Assembly (NCBI GenBank): GCA_030264375.1
Contig: JASCQW010000109.1
Coordinates: 69,513,404-69,577,403 of the forward strand
Length of the DNA: 64,000 nt
From: Carcharhinus longimanus
Taxonomy: Eukaryota
Direction of reading: 5' to 3'
The translations under genes and the position numbers were made by a program. The notes beneath the pieces are model-generated. The model ran no database searches, had not been told where the DNA came from, and was given only the letters and a program-made list of their open reading frames with translations. Shown here piece by piece: positions 1,401-43,339 of the stretch (within the stretch, counting starts at the first letter, position 1; each line of letters starts with the position of its first letter).

Positions 1401-1631
1401 TGAACATTCATCTGTCCGTTCTCTATACTCGCATCGGAGAAAGGGAATATAATTCTCAGGGCATTTGTAAATGATCTTGGAAATCGTGACGAAAGAAATC
1501 TAAGTCGTAGAGTTGAATTTTCCATTTCTTTTGGATAAACAAGGTAATGAACAAATACGTTCTCAGTCAACATCAAGGCACGGATAAGTCAAAAGTGATT
1601 CTATCGGTTATATTGCAATACTTTGAGCAGA

Positions 1632-3345
1632 ATGGCATACTGGTTAAACAGTCAATTGTCTCAATGGCCTGTTCTTTATTTGATAATAATATGCATTTCG
1701 GATTCAGCCTGTTTAAAAATTCGCTACTCTATACCGGAAGAATTGGAGATTGGTGCTTTTNNNNNNNNNNNNNNNNNNNNNNNNNNNNNNNNNNNNNNNN
1801 NNNNNNNNNNNNNNNNNNNNNNNNNNNNNNNNNNNNNNNNNNNNNNNNNNNNNNNNNNNNTGGGAATATTGCTACGGACGTGGGATTAGATGTTAAGCAG
1901 CTATCGGAACGCAGATTTCGAATTGAAACTGGAGGCAAAAAACAATATTTAGACGTCAACTTCGACACTGGAGCTCTCATTATTAAAGAAAAAATGGACA
2001 AAGAGCAGCTTTGCGAGCACGGCCTCACATGTGTGCTGACATTACAGGCTGTGATTGAGAAACCTTTAAAGCTATATCGTGTAGAAATTGAGATTCTCGA
2101 TATAAATGACAACTCTCCGGTGTTCAAGACAAGCGAGTTAAATATTGAAATTCCCGAATTGCTGCCAGCAGGAACGAGCTTCCCGCTGCAGAGCGCGATT
2201 GATCCGGACACCGGAACCAACAGTGTCCGCTCCTACCAGTTGAGTTCAAGCGAATATTTCACTTTGAAAGCACAGTCAGAGAGTCAACAAAATTACATCC
2301 CTGAGCTCGTATTGGAACGACCGCTCGATCGAGAGCAGCATCCATCTCATCGGTTAACCCTGACGGCATTTGACGGAGGAACTCCTGAGAAATCTGGAAC
2401 CACCCAGATTAAAATTACTGTGGTTGACGTGAACGACAACGCTCCATCTTGCGAACAAAATATCTATCAAATTACCATTGCCGAAAACATACCCCTAAAT
2501 ACTTTGCTTGTGAAAGTCACTGCGACTGATCAGGACGAAGGTCTAAACGGTGAGATAATGTATGTCTTTAGCGCTCAGACTCCTAAAAACGTGCGTGAAG
2601 CGTTTAGCTTGGATTCAATAACAGGAGAAATCAGAGTAACCGGTGTTGTGGACTTTGAAGAAGCAGAAAATTATCAAATTTCTGTCCAAGCTAAGGACAG
2701 AGGTACACAATCACTGTCAGTATACTGCAAAGTGTTAATAAGTGTTACTGATGTTAATGATAACTATCCAGAAGTAACGATAACTACTGCAGCAAATTCC
2801 ATTCCAGAGGGTGCTGCCAAAGATACAGCAGTAGCCCTTTTTCAAGTTACGGATGTTGATTCTGAGAATAAGGGAAGTAATTATTGTCGAATCACCAGAG
2901 ACATCCCATTTAGTATCCATAGGACTTTTAATAATCACTACACGTTAGTTACTGACGGCGAGTTAGATCGTGAAAAAGAGCCAGAGTACAACATTACAAT
3001 TGTATGTACGGACACGGGTTCCCCTCCACTCTCGGCCAATAAAACGATCCAAGTTCAAGTCTCCGACATAAATGACAATGCGCCAGGATTTACGCAGCCT
3101 TCTTTCACCATGTATGTTACAGAAAATAATGCTATTGGTTATTCAGTTGGTGCTGTGTCAGCATATGATCCCGATTTTAATCAAAATGCTGAATTGTTGT
3201 ATTCTATTTTGGATGTGCTGATACACAGTTTGCCCGCGACAACTCTCGTCTCCATAAACTCAGCCAGCGGTGAGATATTTGCACAACGCTCGTTTGATTT
3301 TGAGCAATTAAAACAATTTCAATTCCATGTACAAGTGAAGGATTG
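1632..3345 (+). CDS. pcdh: Clustered protocadherin variable exon V1 (signal peptide, EC1 to most of EC5; interrupted and truncated by N gaps)
   Basis: MAYWLNSQLSQWPVLYLIIICISDSACLKIRYSIPEELEIGAF, then after the gap GNIATDVGLD...DINDNSP...LDRE...DVNDNAP; close paralog of 16451-18919. Both parts are stop-free; 3' end lost at gap 3346-3445. Confidence 0.9.
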
Positions 3346-3445
3346 NNNNNNNNNNNNNNNNNNNNNNNNNNNNNNNNNNNNNNNNNNNNNNNNNNNNNNN
3401 NNNNNNNNNNNNNNNNNNNNNNNNNNNNNNNNNNNNNNNNNNNNN

Positions 3446-3519
3446 GTCGGCGCAACATCGTGGGCCGAAGGGCCTGTTCTGCGCTGTAATGTTCTATGTT
3501 CTATGTTCTATGTTCTATT
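3446..3519 (+). mobile_element. CR1-type LINE 3' end with (GTTCTAT)n tail
   Basis: CATCGTGGGCCGAAGGGCCTGTTCTGCGCTGTAATGTTCTATGTTCTATGTTCTATG directly after an N gap. Confidence 0.85.
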
Positions 3520-6500
3520 TGACATCGACGTGATGAAGTTTTAAATACCATTCCACAACAACTGACGTTAAAACTGCTCCAGTTTTGGACGAGCAAATTG
3601 CACTCGGATGACTGCGATAAGACACTATTTTTTTCAGGCTTTGCAAGTGGTAAAATTTAGAGGCACAGCTGCACTCGCTAAACTTAACGATTTGAATTCT
3701 CAGGGTTTTTTGTTGCGGTCCATTTCTGAGAAGTGCGTGGTCTGTGATGGGGCTGGATTCACATTGCAATCTTATGCAGGCACTGGCGAAGCTTCTGGTG
3801 AATGTTAGTTTCAATTCTGTAAGTGAAGGTGGATAATCTGCCGCATTTAGAATTTACATCCATTTGCATTAACTACCTTTCATTTCCTGAGGTTCTTTGT
3901 ATTGACGCCATTAGAGTATTGTTCTGGCAGGCTGCCAAATTTTATTGCAAACGAACAGTCAGTTTCTGACGTAGGATCGTTTGATGGCATTGGCTGATGC
4001 GAAACATAATCTGTCACAAAACGCAACGTAACTTCTCACAATGACTTCATTGAGAGAGAACAAAAACACCCAATGGAAGTATTTCGTTATCGCTGGTCAA
4101 TCAGTAAGACATTTTGCAGATTTGACTGAAAAGCATGACATTCACTGGTATTTTCAAAAGATTGTTGAATTGAGAACAAGAGGGATGACCTTTGAAAATG
4201 GGGGAATATGATTGGGAAACGCGGTGAAGCTCGCTCGTTCTGTCAAAACATGACATGTGTATCAAATTTGCTTCCCCCACAAAAATAAAATCAATAAAAG
4301 CAGAAGATTTGAATATATTTCAGCTAAACTAAGATAATAACTTGAAAATCGTGGAGCCCAAAATTTATCGGCAGCGCGTAGTAAATTTGAAATAAAAAAA
4401 AAGTCTTCTAAGCATCGTATCAGCTGCGAATTTAGGATGTCATTCTCCAGACGATTATCACATATGTCAAGAGCACGTTTCTTAAAGTTGAAATCCGGTG
4501 AATATTAATTTAAAGCTTCCTGCAATCTGGTACGTTACCATTTCACTGTATTTCTCACAATCAGCAAACTTACCAGAATAACATGAACACAAACGCCCTC
4601 CAGTACAAATGAAGGATGTTCAGCCACATAGTCTCAGCGCTCCATATATCAAAGCACATTTAAACGGCGTCGCTTTCTTGCATTCTCTATTAGCATGTTC
4701 TGCGTTACATTTCGCAGGCAGGATTTATCTCTCCTTATAATTCAAGGTGATTCGATTACCGACAACATTTGCTGACCAGCATTTTATCAATTGTCCTCAA
4801 CAGATCAATGTACTACTATTGGCAACATGATTTATTTCACCAACTAAAAGCAAAATCCTGTTCTTTACTGACACTTTAAAAATCCACAGTGATTTTATCA
4901 AATTAACTGATCACTAACGAAGCGACTATTAATTGCATCATGTTTTGTTGTTTTCTGAAAGCTTACATCTTCTACAGTTGAACTGACAGTTAGTGAGTTA
5001 ATCAACGAATCTTTGCAACTTAAAAAAAAAGGATGTGGACAGTTCGTAGTTCAACACATCACTGGTGCCTGTCCAGAGTAAAATGACTATTGCAAGAAAA
5101 GGTGGCACTGACTTCGTTATTTTCATTGACTTCCTTCAGTTAACTAGCAGGCGTTTAATTCACTCTCGGTACGATATTAACATTATATGCAGAGATATCT
5201 TACCCTCTGTTACATATTTCTGAAATCTACTTTTTCACCATGTGCTTCTAAACATTCTTGTCCTTGGTGAAATCAGGTGTATTGAATTCATTTTCTTCAA
5301 AACCTGAAAAAAAAATCCCGGACCATCCGATGTGGTTTGGCCAGATATTTGCTCTGTGTATCACGTAGTTCTGTTTCTCCTGTCTGAACTACATCAGTTC
5401 AGCCAGATTTTCAATTATCATTTACATTATGGATTGCAATCTGATTATGCAAGGATGCACAAGGTCGTGTTGCATCATTCGAGTCGTATGGCGTTCGGTC
5501 AACAACGTTCCCTTTTTTGTGTGTTGTAATCGGACGAACTCTTCGCTGAAAACATCCCGTCAATAATTTAGGATTTGCCTGCTAATATTCGTTTTTTCTT
5601 CTTGAGATACATTATTGCACAACTGAAGTTGCAGTAGTTCCCAGGGAATTGATTTTTTTTTCTCTCGAATTTTCGAGGTCTGTTTTCAGTGAGATCGTGA
5701 AGGTATTAAGGGCAACAGGCATTGTGGATGCAGCTGTCTCTGGCGTCACTCCACTGCTGACGGAATGACTCTTGGACATAGATGCAGATATATCAAGATG
5801 AATAAAGGAACATTTCTGCACAGAACACGATGCGATATTTTTTGGGTTCACTTGCAAAGATAGCGGCAGTTCCTGGTCAATTGTATCCTTAAATCCGAAC
5901 ATGATAAGTTCTTGTTTCTATAATGCAAACGATTACCAATTATCTCTCAAAAGACGAAAGCGTATTTAGTCACTTTCCTCAGAAACAGTTACGTTTTTGT
6001 TTATTATTTTCAGAAATATACAGCCAATACCTTAGTTATTCCATTATTTTGGCAAAAAATGACATATTGGTTCAAATGAGATTGATTGAAAATACCGAAA
6101 ATTGTGAGTCCAATGAACAATGTTCCATGAACTTCTCTGCAAACTTTTCTTCCTTATTGATTGAACCTCACGACAGAGAAACAGAAAAAAGGTAAGATTG
6201 ACTTCTATGAGTGAGCATATGGTGTGCCGTTCCAACTATTTCTTGAGCAAAAATACAAAGTCTTACCATCAGAAGATTTGCTCCACTTATTAACTATTGC
6301 TTTTAAAGCTAGTTGTGTTAAATGCTGGCCAGGCAATCTGTATTTCATGTCTTACTTACCTCAAAATGTTGTTTAATGTTTTTTTTCTCCCCTTTTGTAT
6401 ATCTATTGGCATGTCCCTAATGATCGCAGACAATGTAATAACTTCATCTCCTTCCACTTGAATGATTCTATTCGGAGGACATAAGTGCGGTTTCATAAAG

Positions 6501-6579
6501 TAGTCGAATGGCAATGCTAGACTCATTTACAATGACAGAATTGCGTTAGAAAAAATGTGGAAAAAAAGAGGACTTCAAT

Positions 6580-7230
6580 GCGTTTGTCCAAGATGTCTTA
6601 TGGTTGAAGGACATATTGGTCAGATGGTGTAAAGGGCTTATGGGAGACTTGGATTTATCAATCGAGGCATAGATTACAAAAGCTTCAATGTCATGTTGGA
6701 GTTGTACAGTAGCGTGTTAAGGACCACACTAGCGTGTTGTGTATATTTCTGATCACATTATATGAAAATGTGAATTTAATGTAGATTAGCAAGTACAGTG
6801 CTACAATAGAACATTTAATCTTTGAAGAGGTCGCATAGGCCTGCGTCAGAACATTTAAGACGAAGGTGCATTCTGATTGTAGTATACAAATAACGAGACA
6901 CATGGACACATTGGATAAGGAACTGTTATACCCTGCAGTTGAAGACCAGACACAAGCGACAACAGGTTCAAGCTGAGTGGCAGTAGGTTTAGGGGGATGG
7001 AAGCCAATGTTTTATTTTATAAAGACGATGCTGATGGCCCCGAATGCACGGCGTTAAAGTGGTGAAGGGGCGAGTTACCACATATTGTGCAAAGGTAACT
7101 TATTGAACTCTTGAGACGTTATGACACTGGGCCAAATGTTGTTATATGGGATTAATTGGAATGTTATTTGTTTCTCGCGTGCCAACATTACTTGATGGAC
7201 CAAATTGACGCTTCCACACTGCATGACTGG
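6580..7230 (+). mobile_element. Degraded CR1 LINE 3' portion
   Basis: GGATTTATCAATCGAGGCATAGATTACAAAAGC...GTTAAGGACCACACTAG... ending TTGATGGACCAAATTGACGCTTCCACACTG, matching the CR1 RT C-terminus/3'UTR seen elsewhere in the window. Confidence 0.65.
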
Positions 7231-8671
7231 AGATTCAATTCGTTCTCTGCCTCATCTGTAGATGTTTTCAAACTAACATGTTTAGTTATTCGAACCATAA
7301 TAAAACACAAATCTACTGTGGACAATTTAAACACCCATAGTCATTATCGTTAAACTTGTTAGAATTATCCACTCATTTGTTTGGAGGTATATGTTTCATA
7401 TGTGTCAGCATGACGTTTTCAGTCATTCAGGACGAAATGTTGAATTCTCCAAACTCACAAAGCTGTCATTCTGGATGAGGTGCGTTTGAATCATCAGAAG
7501 TGTCGAATTGTTTTGAGAAGTGTTTAGCGGAAGCCAGTAGCTGAAGCTTACCCGAATTTCACCTGAACTTGTTTATCAATAGAAAATCGATGTCGTGTTG
7601 AGTGTTGATTATTCTTCCATTGTGTCGTTCAGTGAATAACGAGAGGCTTTGTCCAATACTGTCCATAAATATTTCATCTGCTGCGTTATTAATCACTTAT
7701 ATTTAAACGCATATTTTTGAATGCAAATTCGTTCAGAAATCTTTCATAAATCTTCAGTTTATGAGATTATTCAGACGTAGTGGTTGATGTTTATTTAACA
7801 TGATGACGAATAGTCATCATGGAAAAAAATAAAAACTTTATCTATAAATTCACATTACATCTTTAGTCTTCTCTTATTTGTGTAAGATCTCGAAGCAAGA
7901 GCGAAAATCGATGGTGAGGAAATATATTTTGTCCACTTCGAGCCTCCCGTCAATGGAATGAAACCCTTGTAACTTGACGTTTAAATATGTAATTCTGTCA
8001 TTGTTACCCTGTGAGTATTTGGATCAGAATAAATCCCACACCATCAGTAATGAACCATATTAAAGGCTAAGGTATGACTTATTACGCAATACAACAAAGT
8101 GAAATGCGTCATGCCGGCCGTCTCAAATAGCATAAATCACATCGGATTGTCAGGATGTTTGCCTGTTAAGATTCGTTAATATTTCCACGAAAGAAGTAGG
8201 ATATTGAATGGTTCGAACAAATCAATGCTATTTAATTTGTGCCACAAATATTTAGGCTGTCGCAGATCCTGCTCGGTTGATTCACTGCAGAAATCCAGAA
8301 AGGTTATTCTGCCTTTCATCATTTACTTAGTCGGAACAAAATGGATCATTTCCATTTTCCTGGAAAATAATTTGATGCGGCCCAACGTTGCTTGCGTTTT
8401 CATGTGGATATTTATCTGACGAAAATTATCACATATTATCAGTTCATATTTAGCAATGTAAACTAAGTTTAAATAAAAACTAAGTTCATTAATTCTCCCC
8501 GCCTATAACCCCTTTATCACTGCAATATTATTTGAAATTCCAGATGAAGAGACCCGCGAGAAAGATTCAGGTAATGCAATTTATGGAGTCAAATCCCAAT
8601 TTTGATTGAGAGATTTCCCACCTTTAGATGTATCACTTCATTTTCAGCAGTTCTCCAGAAATGAACAAATC

Positions 8672-8803
8672 GAGAGAGAGAGAGGAAGAGAGAGAGAGAG
8701 ATTGTGTGTGTGTGTGTGTGTGTGCGTGCGTGTGTGTGTGTGCGTGTGTGCATCGGAGAGAGAGAAAGTTTGTTTGCTTGTGTGTATGTGTGTGCATATA
8801 TGA
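8672..8803. repeat. Compound (GA)n/(GT)n microsatellite
   Basis: Directly visible GAGAGA... followed by TGTGTG... tracts. Confidence 0.95.
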
Positions 8804-11289
8804 GAGTCGAAAAAGAGAGATTTATATGAAGACAGAAGTTGTTTCCTAACCTTAGATAACATCCACAGGCATATTTTGAATGATGGTCAATGTATTACTT
8901 TCGGAAAGTTGTCACATCAAGGGACAACATAGGCTCCCATACACATCAGAGAGGAATATTTCTCTGTCAGATTACCTTAGCGATGTCTTTTGACAATGGG
9001 TGACGTGACGTTCACCTAAAATGAATCACTTCTTACATTGGTTCATCGACCCAATCGAAGTGTTCATCTATGTTTGTGTCGCAGAGCGGAAGTGAAAGCT
9101 TATGTGTCACCCTCTACATTGACCCCACATTGATGATATTGGATTTGCAATTCAAATGTTTCCAGGCAGAAGGTTACTAAAGTGCACGTCAGAGAACTGC
9201 CTAAATTTCATGCTGTTTCTGTGCTGGGATTCCACGGCAAGATAAGAGGCGTCAGTGAGAAGATTTTGCAACCTTTTGATTTAGTCATCATCCACCGAAA
9301 TTCTCATGAGGATCAGGGACATTAGTTTAGAAAGTCACCTTCGACACTATTGAGGGCTGAAAATGCATATAATCACTTAGTTTTGCCACGTCGCCACCGT
9401 TGGTATCCATTTATCTGCGGGTGTGCATGTGCCATTGAATAATTACTCGAGAAGTTCCTTCCGTAATTCAGCTCTGACTAAAATGGACCTGCGTTAGTAT
9501 GTCAATTTCATAAAACGAGGGCACTTTGAGATTACCCTGAGCGTTGTTGGAGCCTGATGGCTGACACCACCGTCTTGCATTGCACTCCCCTCCGAAATTG
9601 TCGGTGTCTCGAACTCTGCTAATACATGTACACAACGCTTTCCCTCGTGCCAGAAGTCCACCGTACATCCAGAATGAACCTGTTTCTACGATAATCTCAG
9701 TTTCCAATGCAGCTAGTATTAACCCTCAACTAGCTAAGGTCTATTGGTGATTCGGTTGAGAACCTCACAGAAGAAGAATTAGATTGCAATAACTATATTG
9801 TGCTTGGGGATGGATTTCACTGCACGTTTGACGCGACACTATCAGTCAGAAACAGAGGCACCACAAGGGAATATAAATGATGAATATCCCTCCTTTGATA
9901 TTGGGGAGCTGGGTGAACCCCATTAAATCAGGCAATCAGTCTCTGTTGACTAATCTGCAGATTCGCAATAGTGTTTCTATTGAGACACAAAGGCAATTCC
10001 CGTTCAGAAGTCAACATTTTCTTTTCCCTTCCCTCATAGAAATAGTTGCTTTGAATAAAGATTTAAAAATTACAGGTGAGAATAAAATAAAACCTCTGCA
10101 ACATGAACAGCTGTTCTAAACTTTACTCCAATTTCGAGAGCTTCAATAATCATTTAGTAAGAGAACGGTGGAATTGTAATTAATCATCTGTTTTTCTACG
10201 CCCTTGTGGAATCAAATTAACTGTTGATTTCTATGTTGACTTCATTTGCCATAAAGCTACTTCTGGAAGAAGACGATTGATTTTAAAACAATAATCAATT
10301 CCAATATTTGTTTCGAGTAAAATTCCGAAAAGTCATAGTTATGTTTCTTAGCAAGGTACATGCTGATGAATTATTCAATTAATTATTATCCCTGTTTGGA
10401 TCAAATTTTGAGCTGCAATTATAATGTTCAACTTCATATGAAGAATTCCATCGGAATAATAATAGCTTCATCAGGACGTGTTGATGGCATGAAAAAAAAA
10501 TGAAGGCTGAATGCGCATAATCTCTGTTTCTGTTGGTTACCTTTATTTTCAGATTATTTTTCTTCGGCTGCATTACGTTTTCAGAAAAAAAAAACAGGAT
10601 AATGCACGGGAAAATAAAAAGGTGGCAATACAACAAGAACAAAAAACACATGCCCCGTGAGGTGCTGTGCAGGGGAAAAACAGAATGAACCGAGATTGTG
10701 AAACTCAGTGTTAAGTCCAGAAGTGTGCGCACTGACCAGTGGAGGGATGAGAGGTTACCTCTTGTTCTTACGCTGAGCCTCACTTGTAGAACGCAAAGAG
10801 GCCACGGAAAATAAGGTCAGAAGGGGAGTTGAGCGCAGCATTAAAATCACCGGTGCCAAGTCTCCCTGTATCTCAGTTCGCCCGCTGTGAAGTGGCGTTT
10901 TGCAAAGTAATTTGCGAAAAGCCACCGGTCTCCCCAAATTTCAGGATACCAAACTGCAATCACGGTTTTGCCCCTGTGACACACTCTCTGTGTACGTCCT
11001 AAATCCAATAACCTTTCTGACAAGTATTGGATCACATAATCCTTCTCGGAGAGCTGCATGGACTGTCTTTCTCCATAAAAGCAGTGTGTGTCTTTGGCTG
11101 ATACAGTAGAATAGCTTTTGAAGCCAAATGGCGTTTGTTGAGTAAAAATATTCGTTTTAATTGGTTTGATGCATTAGTATGTTCAACCAATGGCATTATA
11201 AATAAATATTCATCTATTACACCGTCATAACACTAGGTAACCCACTCCTGTAGCGAGAAATTCAATGTTTTCTTCAAATCACGTCTTGC

Positions 11290-11521
11290 ATTTTATTTTT
11301 TTTTCTCTCGCTTCACAAACATTGATTGCAGGCAACCAGCCATCATCTTGCACCTAAATCTTATTGTTTATTGAGCTGACCATTCTCTATACCCTAGGTA
11401 TGACTGCGAAACTACATTCTTCACTCTCTCGTTTCTTTCTCTATGAATTGTATGCCTTGTCTGTATAGCGCACAAAAAACTATACTTTTCGCTGTCTGCT
11501 AATACATGTGACAATAATAAA
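11290..11521 (+). mobile_element. Rex1/Babar-type LINE 3' end
   Basis: Reverse complement of the 3' ends at 25965 and 34347 (...TTGTCTGTATAGCGCAC...TACATGTGACAATAATAAA). Confidence 0.65.
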
Positions 11522-12627
11522 AAGGTAAGTACTGGCATACAGGATCAACCCATACAATCCATACCTCCAAAGGAGAAGAGCACATTGCGCGTTTGCACTT
11601 AATATTTTACTCCCTTTTCCCGGTTTAATTCCTTGACATTCTTGGACCATTAACAGTGAAATTTAACTTTGGTGAAATGCATGAGAATTCCACCACCACC
11701 GTAGAAAAGAAAGTCGGCGAGTTTTGAAGTGAATGTGGAAATAAAAATTTCTGTATTTCACAGGGAAGCAATTGGATAAATAGGCGACATTAATAATCGA
11801 ATGCACGATTCCACTAAAGGCAAGGTGCATTTATCTTCAGAAATTTCGTATTTATATCTTTGGAGTGATATAAACACCATGTTGAAATGATTTGACATGC
11901 AAGAGGGTGCACGAGAATAAGTATATGGCAGACATAGATAAGTTACCATCCTGGCGAATTCTAACATGGAGCAAAATATGATAGTGAAAGTTTGAATTTT
12001 CTCTATGATTTTTGTAATAAATTGGCTTGATTGTTGATGAGATTTGATTTGATTTATTATCGTCACGTGTATTAGCAAGAATGTGAATATATTGTGCAAG
12101 CAACAATTTATACTTCATGGGAAAGCATTGATTTTTTTTGGCAACGACTCCTAGACACACAGAATTCTCTGCTGATAAGAGATATGTTATTGCTGTTCCT
12201 TTATTGTGGCATTTTTGGAAAGTGTCCACCGTGGTACAAGGAGAAAAACGTCGACTTGTCTCCTTTTCAGAAACATATAATATTGGCAATATCATCTAAA
12301 TTCAAAATTAAAACGAACTCAGAAATGGGACAAGGCGAAAAATTCTTTCAGCCCCTGTCAATTAATCATAACATTAGACTCTCTCCCCTACGCTATCGCC
12401 ACAGCCCTCCTTGAGTCGCTATCATCTGCATGTCTGATTGCCATTTGAAAGTCATGAGGAATCTGACTCCTTTCTGATATGATCAAAGCATAAAACTTTC
12501 TGAAAGTTCCACTATTATCCCAACTCTCTGTCTTCTATTAATTAGCCAATCCTCTACCAAATGCCAATATACTACCCTAATCTCCATGGGCTCATATGTC
12601 ATTCAGTAGTCTGTTGTGCGATATCTT

Positions 12628-12960
12628 ATAAGAACATAAGAACATAAGAAATAGGAGCAGGAGTAGGCCATCCAGCCCTTCGAGCCTGCCCCGCCATTCA
12701 ATNNNNNNNNNNNNNNNNNNNNNNNNNNNNNNNNNNNNNNNNNNNNNNNNNNNNNNNNNNNNNNNNNNNNNNNNNNNNNNNNNNNNNNNNNNNNNNNNNN
12801 NNAGCCTAGTTTATTCAGCCTCTCCTCATAGCGCAACCCCCTCAACTCTGGTCTCAGCCTAGTAAACCCCCTCTGCACTCCCTCCAAGGCCAAAATATCC
12901 TTGCGTAAGTACGGCGACACTTTGCGCATTACAGGCCAGTATGCATAACAGAGTTTTCGT
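12628..12960 (-). mobile_element. Young CR1 LINE 3' end spanning N gap 12703-12802
   Basis: (ATAAGAAC)n tail; ORF peptide SPYLRKDILALEGVQRGFTRLRPELRGLRYEERLNKLG is the CR1 ORF2 C-terminus. Confidence 0.9.
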
Positions 12961-13451
12961 GAGCATTGCGCTATTAGGAGGAAGGAATCTAAGTTATGAA
13001 ATTATAGAAGTAGCAATGGGAGGGGTGTGGGGAATGCGGCAATGGAGAAACATTGAACAGAGTTGAGAAGGAGAACTCAGTTGGGAAATGGATCTATTGG
13101 TGTTTCAATGCAACCTATTAACTTGCCATCATGCCTTAATGTGGTTTCCTAATTTACCGGGACAGACATTCACATACGTTTATTTTGACAAATTGCTGTT
13201 AAAGTTATCACTATACACAAGGTAAAATCTTCACACTTGTTAACTATGTTTTAAGTGCAAATGGGGTGATATTATATTCCATGACTAAGGGCTGGATTTC
13301 TGTGTTTTGCAAGTTAGCAAAGCGTTTCCTTTTCCTAGGAGATTTATACAATATGCAGTGGTTTGGCAGGGGTTGCGGTATATTCACTTCTAAATAGCCC
13401 ACAAGGAGGAATAAACTGAAAGGTAATGATTCTGCAGTCGACCTTTGTTAT

Positions 13452-13747
13452 GGGCAACATAGTGGCACTATGGTTTGTATAAGTGCCTCAGCGCCAGGAC
13501 CGGGTTCGCTTCCCGGCTTGGGTCATTGTCTGTGTGGAGACAGCACATTTTCCCCTTGTCTGTAGGGTTTCCTCGGGTGCTCTGATTTCCTCCCACAGCC
13601 CAACATGCTGGTTTGGTGCATTGCCATGCTAAGTTGGCCTTCAGTGCACGTGAACAGACACCGGAGTGCGGCGACTCGGGGATTTCGCAGTAACTTCATT
13701 GCAGTGTTAAACTAAGCCTACTTGTGGCACAAATAAACAAACTTTAG
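13452..13747 (+). mobile_element. tRNA-derived V-SINE (shark HE1-like body)
   Basis: A/B-box-like head (GTGGCAC...GGTT; GGGTTCGCTTCCC), core GGGTTTCCTCGGGTGCTCTGATTTCCTCCCACAG, tail ...AAGCCTACTTGTGGCACAAATAAAC. Confidence 0.8.
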
Positions 13748-13769
13748 TAAATCTGTGTAATATTTTATG

Positions 13770-15290
13770 TATCATATATTGTATTGGAATGATGCTATAG
13801 ATTCTAGAAGTATTCCAATGGTAGTAGGGTAGTGAATGTCACCACATTTAAAAAAAAATGTAGGGAGAGAGAAAACGGGGAGTTATAGACCAGTTAGCCT
13901 GATATGGGTGGTGGGGAAAATGCTGGAGTCAACTATTGAGGATGTAATCACTGAGTATTTGGAATGCAGTGTCAGGATCAGTTCAAGTCAGCATGGATTC
14001 AGTAAAGTGAAATCGTGCTCGACAAATCTTCTGGATTTTTTTCATAATGTGACCAATAGAATGGACAAGAGCGAACGAGTGGATGTTGTATTTCTGGACG
14101 TTCAAAACACTGTTGACCAGATCCCACAACAGAGATTAATGAGCAAAGTTAAATCTTAGGGTATTGAGGGTAATTAATGTATTGACGTGAATAAAAAACT
14201 GGTTGGCAAACGAATAATAAAGAGCGTGAATAAACGGCTTCTTTTCAGAATGGCAGGCAGTGACTAGTGGGGTACCGCACGGTTCAATGCGGGGACCCCA
14301 GCTGTTCGCAATATGTGTTAATGATTTGGAGATAGGAAGTGATTGCATTATCTCCAAATTTGCAGAAGACACTAAGCTGAGTTGCAGTGTGTGCTGTGTG
14401 GAGGATGCTAAGAGGCTGCAACGTGACTTGGACAGGTAGACTGAGTGGACAAATACCTGACAAATGCAACATAATGTGGATGAATGTGAGGTTATCTACT
14501 GTGGTGGCAAAATAGGAAGGATGATTATTATTTGAATGGTGGCAGATGAGGAAAAGGGGGGAGTGAACAGTGACGTGGGTGTCATGGTGGAACAGTTGGT
14601 AGAGGTTGGCATGCAGGTTCAGCAGACGGTGAGGAAATCTAATGGCATGATGGCCTTTATAGCAAGAGAATTTCAGAATAGGAGTATGGATGTCTTGTTG
14701 CGTTTATACAGGGCTTTAGTGAGGCCACTCCTTGAGTACTGTGTGCAGTTTTGACCTCCTTGTCTGACGAATAACATTCTTGCTATTTAAGGAGTCCAGC
14801 AAAGGTTCACCAGACTGTTCCAGGAATAGCAGGACTGACGTATGAAGAAAGACTAGAATAACTGGCTTGTTCTGGAATTTCGAAGAATAAGAGGGGATCT
14901 CACGAGAAACATATAAAATCCTGCTGGGACTGGGCAGTCTGGATGCAGGAAGAATGTTCCCGATGTTGAGTAAGTCCCAGAAGTAGGGCTTACATTCTTA
15001 GAATAAGGGGTAAGTCACTCAGAAAAGAGATGAGGGAGAACTTTTTCACTCAGAGATTTGTGAGCCTGTGGATTTCTCTACCACAGGAAGCTGTGAGGGC
15101 CAATTCGTTAGCAATGTTCAAGACGGAGCTGGACATGGTCCCTGTAGCTAAAGGGATCAAGGGGGGTAGAGAGAAAGTGGGAGTGGGATACTGAAAGTAC
15201 ATGATCAGCCATAATTATATCGAATTGTGGTGCCGGCTCGAAGAGCCGAATGACCTAATCCTGCGCCTATTTCCCATGTTTCTATGTTTA
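13770..15290 (+). mobile_element. 5'-truncated CR1 LINE (decayed ORF2 reverse transcriptase plus 3'UTR)
   Basis: YRPVSL, QHGF..KSCSTNLLDFF, GVPHGSMRGP, FAEDTK, LYRALVRPLLEYCVQF motifs with stops and frameshifts. Confidence 0.92.
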
Positions 15291-15309
15291 ACCGACCAGT
15301 TCCCAGTAT

Positions 15310-15800
15310 CTGTTTTGCGTGTTCTGAACGAGATGGACTGCTTGCTGGTTTTGGTCATTGCACTCAAGGTGATGCACAATGCATCAATTGTCAAAGAATA
15401 AATGCTGGAGAGTGAAACCAAGTCACACACAGATAATTAAAACTAATAACCAAGATGAGGCAATCTAACCACCGCCGCTTGACATTAATTGGTGATATAA
15501 TTAATGAACTCCCCATGGTCAAAATCCTTATAATACCATTGACCAGTAACACAACAGGACTCACCACATAAATGCAATGGCAGCAAGAGCAAGTCAGGGG
15601 CTGGGAATACCGACTTCCGGACTTTCCAAAATCTGTCCATATCAACAGGGCACACGTTAAGAGTGTGATGGGATATTCCCCAATTGCTTGGAGGGGTGCA
15701 GCTCCAACAACACTCAAGAAGCTTGACATCATCCAGGACAAAGTAACTCTCTTGATTCACACCACATCCACAAATATCTATTCCGTCTACCGGGTTGTCA
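15310..15800 (+). mobile_element. CR1/L2-group LINE ORF2 C-terminal fragment
   Basis: Peptide RAHVKSVMGYSPIAWRGAAPTTLKKLDIIQDK; related fragments at ~35300-35560 (+) and ~52300-52620 (-). Confidence 0.65.
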
Positions 15801-16029
15801 CAACTTGTAACACACACGCGTAACGAACTCCTGTCACAAGACTGGCCATTTAACTGTCAGTTGTTTAGCAGCAATCTCTTGCACAAAAGCTTTCCCCACT
15901 AATATTGGATTATTGGAATTTGTGTGTTGCAAGCAAGGCAATGTTAGTTGCCCGGTAAAATGAATAGATTGATTGTTAATCACAAAAATGAAGTAAATAA
16001 TATCAGAAATATCGAGGAAAATACGAATT

Positions 16030-16220
16030 AATGTTGCACAACGGAAAATGCACAACGCAATTCCTCCGGAGCTCAGTAGAGGCACTGTTGCTTTAAGATA
16101 CTGTGATTTGATTATTGGCCGAGTCCCTTTGTATCCCTGTCTACCAATGAAATGCAGAGATGTGGCCGGAGATCCAACACCACTCCCCATACACCACGTA
16201 CTGCGCCCCGCAGTATTACG
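16030..16220 (+). promoter_or_regulatory. cPcdh promoter P2 (CSE variant TATCCCTGTCTACCAAT)
   Basis: GTTGCACAAC 16033, CGCAATTCC-N5-AGCTCAGTAGAGGCACT from 16056, ATTGG 16114, CCAAT 16144. Confidence 0.85.
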
Positions 16221-16450
16221 AACATTCATCTTTCACGCTCCATACTCGCATCGGAGAACGGGAATATAATTCTCAGGGCATTTATAAATGATTTTGGAAA
16301 TCGTGACGAAAAGAATCTCAGCGGCAGACATTGAATTTTGCATTTCTTCTGGATAAGCAAGGTAATGAACAAATACGTTCTCAGCCAATATCAAGGCGCG
16401 GATAATTCATGAGAGATTCTATCAGTTATATTCGCAAAAGTATGTGCAGA

Positions 16451-18919
16451 ATGTCATACTGGATAAAGAGTAAATTGAAACAATGGTCTATTCTTTATCT
16501 GATAATAATATACATTGCGGTTTCAGTCTGTTCAAAAATTCGCTACTCTATACCGGAAGAATTGGGGGTTGGTGCCTTTGTTGGGAATATTGCTACGGAC
16601 TTGGGATTAGATGTTAAGCAGCTATCAGGGCGTAGACTTCGAATCGAAACTGGAGGCAAAAAACAATATCTAGAGGTCAACTTCGACACTGGAGCTCTCA
16701 TTATTAAAGAGAACATTGACAAAGAGCAGCTGTGCGAGCACGGCCTCCCATGTGCGCTGACATTACAGGCTGTGATTGAGAAACCGTTAAAGCTATATCG
16801 TGTAGAAATTGAGATTCTCGATATAAATGACAACGCTCCCAAGTTCAAGACAAGCGAGTTAAATATTGAAATCCCAGAGTTGCAGCCAGCAGGAACGAGC
16901 TTTCCGCTGCAGAGCGCGATTGACCCGGACGCCGGAACCAACAGTGTTCGCTCCTACCAACTGAGTTCAAGCGAATATTTCACTTTGAAAACGCAGTCAG
17001 ACAGTGAACAAAATTACGTCCCTGAGCTGGTATTGGAACGACCGCTCGATCGAGAGCAGCGTGCAATTCACCAGTTAACCCTGACGGCATTTGACGGTGG
17101 AACCCCGAGTAAATCTGGAACCACCCAAATTAAAATTACTGTGCTTGACGTGAACGACAATGCACCATCTTGCGAACAGAATATCTATCAAATCACCACG
17201 GCCGAAAATGTACCTCTAAATACTTTGCTTGTGAAAGTTACTGCGATTGATCAGGACGAAGGTCTAAACGGTGAGATAATGTATGTTTTTAGCGATCAGA
17301 CATCTGATAATGTGCGTGAGGTGTTTAGCTTGGATTCAATAACAGGAGAAATCAGAACAGCCGGCGTTTTGGACTTCGAAAAAGCAGACAGTTATCAGAT
17401 TTCCGTACAAGCTAAGGATAAAGGTACACGTTCACTATCAGTATACTGCAAAGTGTTGATAAAGGTGACTGATGTTAATGATAACCCCCCAGAAATAATG
17501 ATAACTACTACATCAAACTCTATTCCAGAGGATGCTGCCAAGGATACAGCAGTAGTCCTTTTCCAAGTTACGGATCCAGATTCTGGTAATAAGGGAAGTA
17601 GTTATTGTCGAATCACCAGAGACATCCCATTTAGTATCCATAGGCCTTTTAATAATCACTACACGTTAGTTACAGACGGCGAGTTAGACCGTGAAGAAGA
17701 GCCAGAGTACAACATTACCATTGTATGCATGGACACGGGCTCCCCTCCACTCTCGGCCAATAAAACGATCCAAGTTCAAGTCTCTGACATAAATGACAAT
17801 GCGCCACGTTTTACGCAGCCTTCTTTCACCATGTATGTAACAGAAAATAATGTTATTGGTTCTTCAATTGGTGCTGTGTCAGCCTATGATCCCGATTTTA
17901 ATCAAAATGCTGAATTGTTGTATTCTGTTTTGGATATCCTGATACACGGTTTACCTGCAACCACATTCATCTCAATAAACCCAACCAGTGGTGAGATATT
18001 TGCACAACGCTGTTTTGATTTTGAGCAATTAAAACAATTTCAGTTCCATGTACAAGTGAAGGATTGTGGATCCCCTCCTCTGAGCAATAACGTAACAGTG
18101 AATGTAATCATCATGGACCAGAATGACAATGCCCCTGTGATCGTGTCACCTCTGTCAAACAAAGGGTCTGCAGCAGAGGACACAATACCAAGATCTGCAG
18201 AGCCAGGTTACTTGGTTACAAAAGTGACAGCCACTGATGCCGATTCCGGATTAAACGGTCAAATTGTTTACCAACTCCGTCAGCCGACGGATGTAAGCTT
18301 ATTTACTGTGGCTTCAGAAACAGGAGAAATTTGGACGATTCGTCACTTGGGTTATAAAGACTCATTCAGGCAAAAAATCGTAATTTTGGTGGAGGATAAT
18401 GGAACGCCGTCCCTTTCTTCAACAGTCACCATTAATGTGTCAGTACAGGATGACGACACCGAAAATGCTTCTAATATCGGCACTTTGAGGAATGCTGGAC
18501 CATGGAAATACGATTTGAAATTTTATCTGATGATGATTTTTGGCTCAACCTCTTTCTTGCTGCTCGTGGCGATTATTATTCTCGCTATTAAGGTGCACAG
18601 AGGTAGAAATGAAATTAAATCTTGCTACTGCTGTTGGCAGTCGTCTTATTTTTCGAGAAACGATTCATCCCATGGAATCCAAAAGGCTAGTGCGAGTATT
18701 CAAATTCCACCCAATTACACAGAGGTGTATGAAAGCGGGGCCCTCCAGCAAACACTTGACTATGGCGCATGCCAAAATTCTGCCTTGAATGATTTTACCT
18801 TTCTACAATTACAAAATATGGCCATGACAAGGACTGACATCGTGAAAGGTACATTTCACCTCGGAGAAATTGGAATTGCATCAAACCCTTCACACAATGA
18901 TACAACTAAATTTCGGGAG
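16451..18919 (+). CDS. pcdh: Clustered protocadherin variable exon V2, intact (signal peptide, 6 cadherin repeats, TM helix, variable cytoplasmic domain)
   Basis: Open frame 16409-18934; DxNDN/DRE/DxD motifs; TM FYLMMIFGSTSFLLLVAIIILAI; phase-0 donor GAG|GTAAGT at 18919/18920. ATG 16451 chosen by homology to the other units; in-frame ATGs also at 16409 and 16442. Confidence 0.95.
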
Positions 18920-18994
18920 GTAAGTGTTATATAAGTGAAATGCCAAACGGCTAATGTGATATGTTATTGTCAATAGCGGGTTTTAATAATTCTG

Positions 18995-27689: not shown

Positions 27690-27860
27690 GACCAGCAAAC
27701 ATTAATAACAGAACGCAGTTCTTCCGGTGTTCGGTTTAGACACTACTGCTTTAAGATTATGTGGTGCTATTATTGGCCGAGTGTCTTTGTGTCGCTGTCT
27801 ACCAATGAGGTGAAGTAATGCCACTGGAGATCCAGCCCCACTTCCCCTATACGAAACAGA
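27690..27860 (+). promoter_or_regulatory. cPcdh promoter P3 with canonical CSE (TGTCGCTGTCTACCAAT)
   Basis: CGCAGTTCTTCCGGTG 27714, ATTGG 27772, CGCT 27793, CCAAT 27802. Confidence 0.85.
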
Positions 27861-28118
27861 GGGTAGTGTCGAAGAAAGGAACAGCACTGATCTTCCCAAG
27901 CTCTCCATTTGTAACTCGGCAAAGGCCGAGGAAATACAGGGCTTTTTGCACAAATATTCTCAGCCATCTGGACAAAAGACAATTCGGTGTTCGAAAGAAG
28001 ACACAGTGGCTTATGTCGTTAACCAAGGTAATGAACAATTCCGTGGTGGACGCTATCTCAACGGGGTTACAATTAATCGGAGAATCTGGCAGTTATATTT
28101 GCAGTAGTTTGATTCAGT

Positions 28119-30556
28119 ATGACGTCCTTGCTTTCTAGCGGGGGCTCGAAAAGGCCCGTTCTTTATGTACTAGACATATGCGTTGCATATTCATTTTGTG
28201 AGAACATTTACTACACAATTCCTGAAGAACTGGAACTTGGTGATTTTGTTGGTAACATCGGTTTGGATCTGGAGTTAGACATTAAACAGTTAATGGCGCG
28301 GGGATTTTGAAAACAAAATACAATATTTAGACGTCAATTTAAAAACTGGAATTCTATTTATAAAAGAAAAAGAAAAAATAGACAGAGACGAGCTTTGTGA
28401 ACAAAGCTTCGCATGTGTATTGATGCTGGAGGCTGTGATTGAAAATCCGCTTCAGCTATATCGTATAGAAATTGAGATTCTCGATCGAAATGACAATGCG
28501 CCCGTGTTCCAGAGAAAAGAGTTTCATTTAGAAATCTCGGAACTGATGCCGGCTGGAACGACTTTTCCACTCAGGGCGCCACGGACGCGGATGCTGGGGC
28601 CAACATGGTTCGCTGCTACTAGCTGAGCCCAAACGAGTATTTCACTTTGAAATCACAGGCAGATACCGAACTAACTGGCACTCCAGAACTGGTGCTGGAG
28701 CGGCCCCTAGACCGAGAGCAACAATCCACACATCGATTAACACTGACGGCGTTTGATGGAGGAATTCCACAAAAATCCGGAACCACCCAGATTAACATCA
28801 ATGTGATTGATGCAAACGACAATTCCCCAGTTTGCGAACACGACGTCTATCAAATCACCACTGCGGAAATCGTGCGTAAAAATACATTGATCGTTAAAGT
28901 AACTGCGGTGAATTTGGACGAAGGTGTTAATGGTGGGGTAACTTATTCTTTCAGCGAGAACACTGCGGATTGAGTTCGGGAAGTATTCAGTTTAAATTCG
29001 ATAAACGGAGAAATTAGAGTAAACGGTACGCTGGACTTTGAAGAAACAGAAAATTATCAGGTTTTGATACAAGCTAAGGACAGAGGTACACACCCAGAAC
29101 CTGTATACTGCAAAGTTCTGATAAAGGTCACTGATGTCAATGATAATTATTCTGAAATAATAACAACATCGACATTAAACAGTATCCAGGAAAACGCGTC
29201 TCCGAACACTGCAGTTGCTCTTTTCCGGGTTACGGACCGAGATTCTACAAACAGACAGAAGGTTTATTGTCGAATCGCCAGAGATATACCTTTTAAATTA
29301 AATAGTTCTTCTAGTGGCCACTATACATTGGTCACTCATGATGATACAGACCGTGAAAAAGTCCCAGAGTACAATATTAGCATTACATGTGCAGATAATG
29401 GATCCCCTTCCTTGTCGACTACGAAAACCATCCGAATTCAAGTCTTAGACATAAATGGCAACGCGCCACGTTTTACGCAACATTCACTCACCATGTATGT
29501 CACAGAAAATAATGTAATTGGTTCCTCTATTGGTTCGGTATCACCCTTTGATCCAGATTCCAATGAAAATGCCACATTGTCGTATTCTATTGTCGACAAT
29601 CTGATAAATGGTTTACCAGCATCTTCATTTGTCTCAATAAACACAGCCAGTGGCGTGAGCTTTGCACAGCGCTCATTTGATTTTGAACATATAAAATCTT
29701 TTGAGTTCCATGTCAGTGTAAGAGACGCTGGTTTCCCATTGCCCAGGAGTAATGCACTTGTGAATGTGATTATTGTAGATCAGAATGACAATGCTCCTGT
29801 GATTGTGTTGCCGTTGCCAAATAAAGAATCAGTGGTAGAGGAAACAATACCAAGATCCGTCGAATCGGGTTACTTGGTTGCAAAAGTGACTGATGCCGAT
29901 TCTGGTTTGAACGCCCAGCTTTCCTATCACCTGCATCAGCCGACTGATAACGCCATGTTTATGGCGGCTCCGGAAACAGGAGAAATCTGGACTATTCGCC
30001 GCTTTGCGCGTAAAGATTCACTCAGGCAAACCATCGTAATTTTGGTGAGAGACAATGGAACCCCGTCCCTTTCAGTAAGAGCCATCATCCATGTGTCAGC
30101 GCAGGACGATACTACAGAAGGCGCATCTAATATAGGATTGTTGGGGATCTCTGAGCCTTGGCAATCTGATTTTAAAAACTATTTGATGATTTGTTTTAGT
30201 ATAACATCATCCCTTTTCCTTGTGGCTGTTGTAATCCTTAGTTTTAAGGTTCACAAAGATAGGAATGCAACTAACAGTTACTGTTGCTGCTGGAAAATGG
30301 CGCATTTTCTCCGGAAGGAAACGCTCCAAGGCACTCAAAGGGCGAGTATAAAACTTCAGATACCACTCAATTTATACAGAGGCGCGTGGCAACGAAACTT
30401 TCCCACAAACATTTCGGTATGACATGTGTCAAGATTAAACCATGAATGCATGGTATAAAGGAACCCATGATTGATATCATGATTGACTCATGCGTCAGTT
30501 CCGAGCACGAAAAGTCCTTAAACTCTACCAGTAGGGAAAACACTGAATACCATGAG
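28119..30556 (+). pseudogene. pcdh: Clustered protocadherin variable-exon pseudogene V3 (full length)
   Basis: Pcdh peptides spread over several frames; TGA 28308 with deletion, frameshift ~28580, TAG 28620, TGA 28971, frameshift ~30370; donor GAG|GTAAGC intact at 30556/30557. Confidence 0.92.
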
Positions 30557-35143: not shown

Positions 35144-35699
35144 NNNNNNNNNNNNNNNNNNNNNNNNNNNNNNNNNNNNNNNNNNNNNNNNNNNNNNNNN
35201 NNNNNNNNNNNNNNNNNNNNNNNNNNNNNNNNNNNNNNNNNNNCTGAAATCCCCACCCCCACCCGTCCCCGCCTCACAACAACACCCGTTCAACATCCGT
35301 GATTTACCATAGATCTAACATCGAACTGGAATAGCCATTTTTTTCAGGTCATGAATGCAGCTCCAACTCCAGCTTCAAGAGGGTCCACATAATCAAGGAC
35401 AAAGCTTTGCCCTTTGGCATTGCATTCAGCAAATTAAACATTTATTTCCTCCAGCATGGACTTAATGATGTGAAGTACATACTAGATGCAAGATGCACTG
35501 CAGCAACTCAACAAACCTCCATCAATTTACATTCCAAATCCGCGAACTATAACACCTGGAAGGAGAAGAGAAACGGACGCATAGTAACAGCATCGTACTC
35601 ATATTACAATCATTAAAGTTTCAAAATACAGACAGTGGAAGCTTTGTGAACATTCACTCATATGTCTTTGCAGGTTGGAGGCAGTGATTCACGATCACC

Positions 35700-37043
35700 T
35701 ACATGGGCCCCGTGTTGCAGCTGAGATTCTCGACATAACCTGAGTTCAACGTGAAATTTCAGATAAAGAATCTGGCGGAATACGCTTTCTGTCACAAAGT
35801 GCGACTGGTCGAGTTTCTGGAACTAAGAGTCTACAAAATGAGCCAAAGTGAGAAGTTCGAATGGAAAATGCCAACAGAGAACAAACTGATATCCCAAATT
35901 GAACGACCCCTGGATTGTGCGCTCACTAGTTTACATTGGCAGCGTTTGTTGGAAACAAGTAGAAAATATTCGGGGCCACCCAGATTATAATTGTCGCACT
36001 TTATGTGAACGACAATGTCTCGGTTTGTGAAGAGAACACTTATCAAATCACCACCACCGAAAAATCTCAGCGTCGTAGAGTTCTGCAGCACAGAAAGAAG
36101 CCCTTCCTCCCCACCGTATCTGGGCCCGCCAAGAAACATCTATTTTTTTCCAATCCCATGTTATTAGCACTTGGTCCGTATCTTTCTGTGCTATGAAGTT
36201 TCAAACGCTCAGCTAAATGGTTCAATAGATTCAAGTGCGGCCGAAGAAAAAACAAAGATACTGTGATCGCGAGAGTAAATTCGGTGGATATAGATAAACA
36301 GTCAGGTAATACATTCTTTTGCGATCAGACTACCGGAAACGGACATAAATGTTTAGCTTGGACACGACAAAGGGAGAAATNNNNNNNNNNNNNNNNNNNN
36401 NNNNNNNNNNNNNNNNNNNNNNNNNNNNNNNNNNNNNNNNNNNNNNNNNNNNNNNNNNNNNNNNNNNNNNNNNNNNNNNNNNNNNNNNNNNNNNNNNNNN
36501 NNNNNNNNNNNNNNNNNNNNNNNNNNNNNNNNNNNNNNNNNNNNNNNNNNNNNNNNNNNNNNNNNNNNNNNNNNNNNNNNNNNNNNNNNNCACAAACTTG
36601 AGGGGCGACCTGATAGATATAAACTCCTATGAGGTCGCCCCTCAATCTCCGTCTTTCCAGAGAGAACAATCCCTGTTGATGCAATCTCTCCTCATCGATA
36701 ATACCTTCCATAACAGGCAACATCCTGGTAAACCTTTTCTGTACTCTCTCCAAAGCTCCACGCCTTCTGGTAGTGTGATGACCAGAAGTATTCCAAATTT
36801 GGTCGAACCAACGTTTTATATAACTGTAACATAATTTGCTAACTTTTATACTTGATGCCCCGTCCGATGAAGACAAGCATGTCACATGCTTTCTGCACCA
36901 CCTTTTCCAGCTGTGCCGCCAGTTTTAAGGATTTGTGGACCTGCGCGTCCAGGTCTCTTAATATCACGTCTAACCCATGTACCGTGAAGGAGAATGCGAC
37001 TGCTTCACCCAGTACAAAGAAGGAAATAATTGGCTCTCATGAG
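35700..37043 (+). pseudogene. Decayed protocadherin variable-exon relic V4 (EC1 end to EC3 start, plus exon 3' end), broken by CR1 pieces and a gap
   Basis: GAGATTCTCGACATAA, ERPLD, VNDNVSVCEENTYQITTTE, KDTVIARVNSVDID; donor CATGAG|GTGAGA at 37043/37044. No promoter block found. Confidence 0.8.
36591..36960 (-). mobile_element. CR1 LINE fragment inside relic V4
   Basis: ALERVQKRFTRMLPVMEGIIDEERLHQQGLFSLERRRLRGDLI. Confidence 0.9.
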
Positions 37044-38704: not shown

Positions 38705-38890
38705 TTCAAGTTGTACAACATTAAATGTAAAAGGCAATTCTTCTCGTGTTCTGTAGAGACAGTATCGCTTTAAGATTCTGTGGTGTTATAATTGGTCCAG
38801 TCTCTTTGTGTCGCTGTCTGCCAATGAGATGAGGAATTGTGGCTGAGGATCCAGCACCACTCCCCCTGCAACAAACGCTGCGCAGTGTTG
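38705..38890 (+). promoter_or_regulatory. cPcdh promoter P5 with canonical CSE (TGTCGCTGTCTGCCAAT)
   Basis: GTTGTACAAC 38710, ATTGG 38791, CGCT 38812, CCAAT 38821. Confidence 0.85.
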
Positions 38891-39137
38891 AAGAGAGGAG
38901 GAACATCAATCTCTCCAGGCGTTTGCTTCACAACTAGGAAAGAGTCCGAGAGGATGGACTGGAATTTGTACAAATAACCCTTGCGATTGTCACAAAGAAC
39001 GCTCGGAGGGAGCCGAAAACCAATGTTTTAAAAATCCGAAAACTAAGGTAATGAGCAGTCGGGTTCTTGCGATTACAATAAGAAGCGTAAAATTCATCAG
39101 AGAATCAGGCAGTTATTTCCCGGTACATTGTTCCAGA

Positions 39138-41588: not shown

Positions 41589-43339
41589 GTGAGAGACACT
41601 TTAATATATATATATATCACGCATGATAACTAGACAATATTGAGGAGACCTAAAATCTTTAAACAGCAGAATGAACCTTGCTAACTTAAATGACATTTCA
41701 GACATTTCATTTAAAAGGAGAAAAAAAAACTGATGTTGATACTTGAAGAGTTTCTCTATGAAACCCTGAATCTGTCATTAGGGCAACGTCAACAAAGACA
41801 CAGAATAATTGAAATGGGGACAATTACGGGAAGGTACGACATTACATTCATAAAAATAACTTTTAAATGGTTTCAAATAAGCGAACAGTAACTTTTTGGG
41901 TACTTCATTAATTTGTTAAGCTTGGACGATTCAATTAAATAAATGCTTAACGCATTTGCGAATCCATTGTTTGAAGTTGGAACGATTCAATGATTTTAGT
42001 AGGTAGTTGAAAGTCAAAGCTTTACTGGAAAAGCCATTTATATTAGGATTAAATTAAAAACACCACGAGGAATCGACATTTTTATAAGACAGGGGATCTT
42101 TGTACAGATAAGCTTGCGGGGTTGGGCCGAAATTGGGAGAGCTATCATACAAGACTAGACTGACATTGCAATACTCAAAAAGAAATGGGTCATGAAATGT
42201 TTATGACANNNNNNNNNNNNNNNNNNNNNNNNNNNNNNNNNNNNNNNNNNNNNNNNNNNNNNNNNNNNNNNNNNNNNNNNNNNNNNNNNNNNNNNNNNNN
42301 NNNNNNNNTATGACACTGCCATCACGATTCTTAGCTACATGCTGTCTCATCGACAAGACAGACACATTAAAGATGACAGAATAACAGTGTACACGAGGGA
42401 TATAACTGCCCTTGCAGTCCTGAACAGCGATTCTAGGCCTCATGAATTCTAATGGCATAAAGTCAAACATGGTCAGGCAAATGGGTTTCGGTATTACCAC
42501 GACCACCTCAACACTACTTTTGCTGATGCCCGCTCCCCGCCTCCCCCACCACCGCCACCCCCCTCCCCGCCATCTTCCATGTTGAAGAATAATTGGAAGG
42601 AAATGGAGAATGGCAATAGTGTACATTTTTTTTCTGGGTGGGTGACTTCCGTCCCCAGCAACAAATGTGCTTCTATAGCAAATGACAAATGATTCCTGAA
42701 CATTCGAATCTACTTAAAATGAATCTAACCGACTCCCCGCGATATTCATTAGTGACATCCTGGTTGCCTTGTGATCAATGCGCCCAATGCACGACAGCAT
42801 CATGGCAAGGCATCTTAGAGTGCGTCTTTGGCATCAACAACTTCAAACCAACTATAGTTGGTTATAGGTGATAGGTTCTGTCGCAAGTCACACACTATTC
42901 AAATTATATATTACTGTAAGCTTATGTCGCTTAGCCAAAATCTTGAAGCACCCTTTTCAACTGTACTTCGTTGTATGTTGCCTCCATCACCTGAAGCAAT
43001 TCAGGGGTATAGTGAAAACCAGACAGAAATGGAGTGGATTATAATTTAATCGTGAGAAAGAGGCAGATTCTTCTCGAAGCTACGGGTATAACTGGATATT
43101 TAACTCTAATAAATATCGGGGCAAGAATGTGAAACGAGCAGTTGAACACCTGACTGAAACATTAACAAACTGATGTTTCATTCCGGAAGTTGGGTTTCAT
43201 TGATTTACCAGGATTCTACGCAAAAAAAATGCTTCGTGTCTTACCCCAAAGGGATAATATTCAGATAATAGTAAGATAATGCTAATTAATTTGCGCTCCA
43301 CATGGAAAATATAAGAGCTATAAAATAGGAATTCTCCAA

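Follow-up and report, generated by a model that had tools for sequence, protein, structure and literature searches.

The 64,000-nucleotide (nt) stretch of Carcharhinus longimanus DNA analysed here, referred to as the window, is a clustered protocadherin (Pcdh) array with variable exons on the plus strand. The interval 3520-11990, ahead of the second variable exon, is real, dead and compositionally odd. Judging from patterns in its sequence, we put only just short of an even chance on its being a heavily eroded relic of the PKD1 family (WSC, C-type lectin and PKD-repeat domains), placed on the minus strand and thus antisense to the array. The features in and around the interval are the following, those assigned to long interspersed nuclear elements (LINEs) being fragments that we take to belong to the CR1 family.

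3346-3445, 100-N gap at the left contig border; its size is a placeholder
3446-3526, plus strand, 3′ tail of a high-copy retroposon, at the end of the contig (depth above 200000 in its bin; similar copy at 62926-62987)
3520-4125, minus strand, candidate exon whose cysteines at 4111-3970 have a WSC-like spacing; a PKD-like part may follow
4574-4843, minus strand, candidate 270-nt exon, phase 1-1, WSC-like; strong donor, weak acceptor
5204-5303, minus strand, candidate 100-nt exon, phase 0-1; the sole candidate with both splice sites above threshold
5640-5917, minus strand, candidate C-type-lectin-like segment including WSDARDSC; suits the end of a lectin domain no worse than its start
6360-6480, minus strand, segment that runs up to the strongest donor of this strand (score 7.8); possible lectin start, by eye only
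6567-6731, plus strand, CR1-type LINE reverse-transcriptase fragment (tblastx to 36794-36958; high depth)
7552-7677, minus strand, 126-nt candidate exon that looks PKD-like, by eye only; strong donor, poor acceptor
8666-8795, microsatellite
8977-9800, minus strand, GC-richer segment, along which PKD-repeat-like motifs are spaced between 9750 and about 9290; candidate only
10500-12500, segment of which the same genome has paralogous copies (~83-85% identity) in other places; contains the proposed 11857-11565 exon and the 10759 donor
11369-11521 and 12022-12095, repeats
12625-12918, minus strand, 3′ end of a CR1-type LINE, in two halves of the same orientation that flank the right gap (reverse-transcriptase-like frame 12960-12803; tail 96-97% like other copies)
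12703-12802, 100-N gap at the right contig border

The stretch is real: apart from three short breaks, 3495-12070 is tiled by overlapping contigs of the sequencing run that holds it best, and a contig of another organism covers 3519-8662 in one piece. It is carried in part by 15 runs of nine studies, none recorded as RNA, which has no bearing on expression. Over 3588-6339 and 7028-10467 the depth is that of a single-copy sequence; this depth, together with 96-98% identity in all four of the 15 runs that were aligned, rules out contamination. Over the orthologous pieces listed, substitutions in the three runs other than the best holder amount to 2.2, 3.5 and 3.4%. One relative carries frameshifting indels at 3627, 3705 and 5762, within proposed exons, and in another the WSC-like and lectin-like pieces differ by 4.8% and 4.2%, compared with 2.2-3.9% elsewhere. 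The stretch is not under coding selection. The preliminary description of this DNA had called the proposed gene dead, and indeed no frame is open, stops occur in every frame and change in the relatives looks neutral. Stops, frameshifts and a lack of purifying selection are what an unprocessed pseudogene displays; a parent gene and an exon-intron structure, which also belong to that class, were not recovered, no parent being found and the splice signals occurring at control density. The interval had also rightly been described as repeat-poor: self-repeats cover 2.7% of it, whereas among the seven other spacers the cover is 15-42% in six and 0% in one. Its CpG observed/expected ratio is 0.77, as against 0.45-0.72 in the other spacers and 0.83-0.97 in exons.

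What points to the PKD1 family is a set of five spaced motifs that are WSC-like, PKD-repeat-like or lectin-like; each has a single match in the window, and all lie on the minus strand (4694, 4655, 4111, 9750 and 5786). They recur in 0-4 of 150 shuffles (the 4111 motif of exon 3520-4125 in none, that of segment 8977-9800 in one), a rarity overstated by an unmeasured factor since all the patterns were fitted after looking. The domain motifs and spacings are those characteristic of WSC, lectin and PKD repeats and of PKD1, and the spacings at 4111-3970 and 9750-9290 presumably resemble those of human PKD1. The looser motifs put forward earlier are common in shuffles, W-x-[DE]-A-x3-C occurring in 26 of 150 and the LWT of 7552-7677 in 98 of 150. 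The letters themselves had been read correctly: all four minus-strand AG..GT pairs are present (270, 126, 100 and 293 nt), as are the donors after 10759 and 6360, the acceptors before 5917 and 4125, WSDARDSC at 5753-5730 and, in minus-strand frames, the remaining peptides. The joins 5303-5204, 4843-4574 and 4125 are phase-compatible and keep one frame, with nine stops in 325 codons.

If the relic is genuine, its former exons would correspond to about 9800-8977, 7677-7552, 5917-5640, 5303-5204, 4843-4574 and 4125-3520. Its function would have been lost before these sharks diverged, substitutions and indels would have accumulated since, and the relic would now act solely as spacer DNA. The 10.5-12.5 kb segment, assigned in the earlier account to the same gene, is, to judge from its paralogs, more plausibly a duplicated piece of Pcdh-upstream DNA than the first exons of a gene; no copy of it was found inside the window. 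A T-run at 10586-10603 lies near the edge of this segment, and there the contigs of the relatives and of the best holder have ~480-560 additional letters that the window lacks.

A considerable body of negative results weighs against a PKD1-family origin. No PKD, WSC or Lectin_C match was returned when six stop-read-through frames and 16 pieces were scanned with Pfam, which yielded solely unrelated weak DUF-type matches. TIGR00864, a 2700-position model of the PKD1 ectodomain, matched none of 16 single-frame queries, with a filter that discards matches above about E 0.1; as a control it recovers intact PKD (E 5e-9) and lectin (E 4e-10) domains of bacteria. The 16 queries gave one unrelated 14-bit match in NCBIfam. 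Eight PDB searches yielded nothing below E 0.1, and in them the lectin-like piece (5640-5917) had a type II antifreeze C-type lectin as its best match at E = 1.2; segment 8977-9800 had no match in TIGR00864, Pfam or the PDB. Word-index searches for homologs found none for the 4843 exon (targets of 157-2000 amino acids) or the 4125 exon (targets of 1686-5368 amino acids). A phmmer search of the lectin and WSC frame 5915-4575 against 1.84 billion representatives gave one match, P0001, which was rejected as an artefact in which an eightfold tandem repeat is paired with an intron-frame stretch. REJ, GPS, PLAT and the polycystin channel region were found in none of the six frames of 3500-12700, although they could sit in or past the left gap.

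Profiles built from natural sequences were run on 4049 six-frame chunks of the window. The lectin profiles were built from 36 and 15 bacterial lectin domains (the latter retained from 19 for their cysteines), the PKD profile from 30 exclusively bacterial PKD domains and the WSC profile from 110 metagenomic WSC sequences, nine of 12 sampled loci of which match Pfam WSC. No giant animal lectin protein was retrieved when a bacterial lectin domain served as query, and a scan of 802 prokaryote genomes for WSC seeds gave one match, below the cut-off. With the lectin profile, the lectin-like segment ranks 12th of 4049 window-wide (E = 12), which counts against the relic, and taken singly it scores P = 0.0015, which speaks for it. 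The best chunk inside the interval reaches 0.4 bit with the PKD profile (rank 125) whereas cadherin repeats reach 4-8 bits. The WSC profile does align the 270-nt exon in register (positions 16-70, 1.0 bit, P about 0.02 taken singly), but the exon falls outside the top 20 of the window and is background window-wide; three chunks near 5409-5229 rank fifth, sixth and 12th, in another frame. Exon 3520-4125 obtained no profile score. Alignment allowing for frameshifts and introns scored 17.8 for lectin and 14.6 for PKD, compared with shuffle maxima of 19.9 and 19.7, and a codon-decay version of the aligner gave background ranks for lectin, PKD and WSC.

The gene-structure measures are unfavourable too. 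The preliminary description had rightly pointed to co-oriented splice signals, but they are not in excess over chance, with five strong donors on the minus and five on the plus strand and two strong acceptors on the minus against three on the plus strand; donor and acceptor counts lie within the range of control spacers. By this scoring, which used a crude matrix, one of five claimed acceptors scored lies above threshold (5303), while four of the five strong minus-strand donors were on the earlier list. Exon 4125-3520, the best case, has five stops in 201 codons as against a control mean of 11.0, a depletion matched by 5.9% of control segments (not significant) and, for the other candidate exons (four of five), equalled by 30-80% of them. 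A codon model trained on Pcdh exons placed four of 10 test segments within the top 7% of controls, and favours another frame for the 4125, 4843, 5303 and 5915 segments; it detects three of three decayed Pcdh controls, which are themselves related to the training set. AlphaFold2 of the 4125 exon alone gave a predicted local distance difference test (pLDDT) score of 36.8. The scarcity of repeat insertions also sits awkwardly with old decay.

The contention that a polycystin-1-like multi-exon gene lies here has in its favour several spaced motifs that align on one strand, and against it the lack of any significant colinear domain or protein match in the searches made; whether it is right we cannot tell. 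The interval may instead be an ordinary non-coding spacer, repeat-poor and probably of low methylation, its motifs and splice sites having been picked by eye from six frames in which they arose by chance. We regard this as a serious possibility that stays below even odds. It accounts for every formal search being negative, for a density of splice sites, a depletion of stops and a codon bias that all stay at control level, for the observation that other parts of the window score above the interval with every profile, and for lectin-like words at 6480-6360 being readable in more than one frame. It fits less well with several motifs of one family falling on one strand with compatible phases, or with repeat and CpG contents unlike those of neighbouring spacers. 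Moreover, the tests are built on fungal or bacterial seeds and weak at ~40% decay: four of four held-out lectins were detectable at 20% decay, with means of 22-48 at 30%, and the signal was lost at 40%. Because power fades in this way, a canonical, modestly decayed domain is excluded while a divergent and heavily decayed one is possible.

A decayed multi-exon gene of another family, such as a lectin/WSC mosaic that is no polycystin, or some other decayed foreign element, would agree with the proposed order (PKD-like, lectin, WSC, WSC), which departs from that of PKD1, and with the absence of REJ, GPS, PLAT and channel parts and of a match to the PKD1 model. However, no other family was matched in Pfam, NCBIfam, Rfam or the PDB, and we consider this origin quite improbable. 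Rfam gave no match over 3300-16400. A decayed Pcdh exon was rejected as well: the interval scores 18.4 and 18.6 with the Pcdh profile, against 16.6-20.2 for shuffles and 83 and 149 for decayed Pcdh exons, and neither cadherin-repeat similarity nor a Pcdh promoter was found in the interval. A CGCT-like site at 12391 was considered as the shared Pcdh promoter and rejected. Returning to the PKD1 family, the more specific proposal that an unrecognised paralog with PKD repeats, a C-type lectin domain and two WSC domains once lay antisense in the shark Pcdh array, and persists as a fossil in several species, appears unlikely.

The placement of the interval is a separate matter, for which the neighbouring Pcdh features have to be considered.

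1250-1360, 16050-16200, 27720-27850, 38730-38870, 43380-43490 and 53520-53665, Pcdh promoter modules
1517-3345, plus strand, Pcdh variable exon 1; aligns to residues 12-553 of the 842-residue frame of exon 2, with 90.4% DNA identity to 16582-18066
16406-18934, plus strand, Pcdh variable exon 2, intact; open frame of 842 codons, preceded by the shared CGCT-region promoter
about 28100-30400, plus strand, Pcdh variable exon, frameshifted (split tblastn frames)
35594-36085 and 43862-45056, heavily decayed Pcdh variable exons (28-45% identity)
38892-41633, plus strand, Pcdh variable exon
about 53900-56250, plus strand, Pcdh variable exon, frameshifted (split tblastn frames)

The promoter module, with paired ATTGG/CCAAT boxes, is common to every variable exon and lies upstream; a copy of Pcdh type is found at 43383-43490. 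The two frameshifted exons (27926-30400 and 53917-56250) are probable young pseudogenes. Exon 1 is split by a 100-N gap at 1761-1860 which, by comparison with exon 2, replaces just a few bases. A second gap ends the exon in its fifth cadherin repeat at 3345, and its 3′ part (the last 290 codons) is absent from the window.

The interval had been placed simply between two Pcdh exons, an account which overlooked that it sits on a single 9.3-kb contig (3446-12702) with 100-N gaps at both ends, the left one truncating the Pcdh exon on that side. That the contig has been mis-scaffolded and belongs outside the Pcdh cluster, whatever the interval may be, is a possibility we regard as rather doubtful, and the interval probably does reside in the cluster. 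Gaps on both sides, repeats at both contig ends, the missing remainder of exon 1 and the fact that neither gap is bridged among the contigs listed would all agree with a misplacement. So would the observation that exons 1 and 2 are neighbours with 90% identity, yet 3.5-10.5 kb has no paralog at ≥80% identity beside exon 2 or elsewhere; this region would have been deleted from one duplicate, have arrived later already dead, or be misplaced. In addition, a 7521-letter contig of a relative extends 4353 letters to the left of 3516 with no match to 2900-3345 among the pieces listed, so that the left placeholder hides kilobases or a misjoin. On the other hand, the left break coincides with a part in which exon 1 hardly differs from exon 2, a natural point of collapse, and the right gap falls inside one colinear CR1-type 3′ end, whose co-oriented halves would fit a true short gap or else a repeat-mediated misjoin. 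The paralogs of 10.5-12.5 kb are also diverged about as much as the Pcdh promoter duplicates of the window, as those of a tandem unit might be.

At best, the interval adds a fossil to a known family, in an unusual location. Should both identity and placement be true, the shark Pcdh array would have tolerated, or else captured, a spliced receptor gene of opposite orientation, and the relic would offer a dated landmark for the duplication history of the array and a pointer to a lost polycystin paralog. The gain would be historical, there being no evidence here of a present function, and if either identity or placement fails the interval comes down to ordinary spacer DNA or an artefact of scaffolding.

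PKD1 combines WSC, lectin, PKD repeats, REJ, PLAT and a channel, with WSC before the lectin domain and most PKD repeats after it (PMC5318412). The motifs of the interval belong to the same WSC/C-type lectin/PKD-repeat set. In contrast to PKD1, the interval has no significant match to the PKD1 model, shows another proposed order with two WSC-like parts, and lacks LRR, REJ, GPS, PLAT and channel regions; PKD1, unlike the interval, adjoins TSC2 and NTHL1. Eight pkd genes are counted in the elephant shark, with no mention of pcdh in that study, which reports pkd1b in elephant shark and gar and its loss or partial state in several lineages (PMC5318412). Chondrichthyans have extra PKD1-like paralogs, since the pkd1-related genes of the catshark include pkd1L4.1 and pkd1L4.2, but these are intact, lie near the PKD1L2/L3 clades and, in the available sections of that report, are given no protocadherin link (PMC11979771). 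Non-protocadherin insertions in the Pcdh cluster have a precedent in Slc25a2 and Taf7, described as mammal-specific (PMC2764143), whereas the candidate is dead, putative and located between variable exons. The same study records 14 degenerate Pcdh variable exons in anole (PMC2764143); like these, the interval is dead and CpG-rich between live exons, but the Pcdh profile is silent in it. A further preprint, in the portion available, notes Pcdh expansion and nothing further (bioRxiv 10.1101/2025.06.08.657570). A literature search that left two key shark Pcdh papers outside its reach found no PKD1-like gene in a Pcdh cluster and no spliced foreign gene in a non-mammalian Pcdh array.

Related domains also occur in other genomes. 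A 2372-residue protein from the planctomycete phylum (L190:4804-11919, genome G221) carries a cysteine-bearing, animal-like C-type lectin domain and a PKD domain and matches the PKD1 model at E 4e-10. Lectin_C domains occur in 129 of the 151 genomes searched of the phylum of genome G005, with up to 22 matches per genome.

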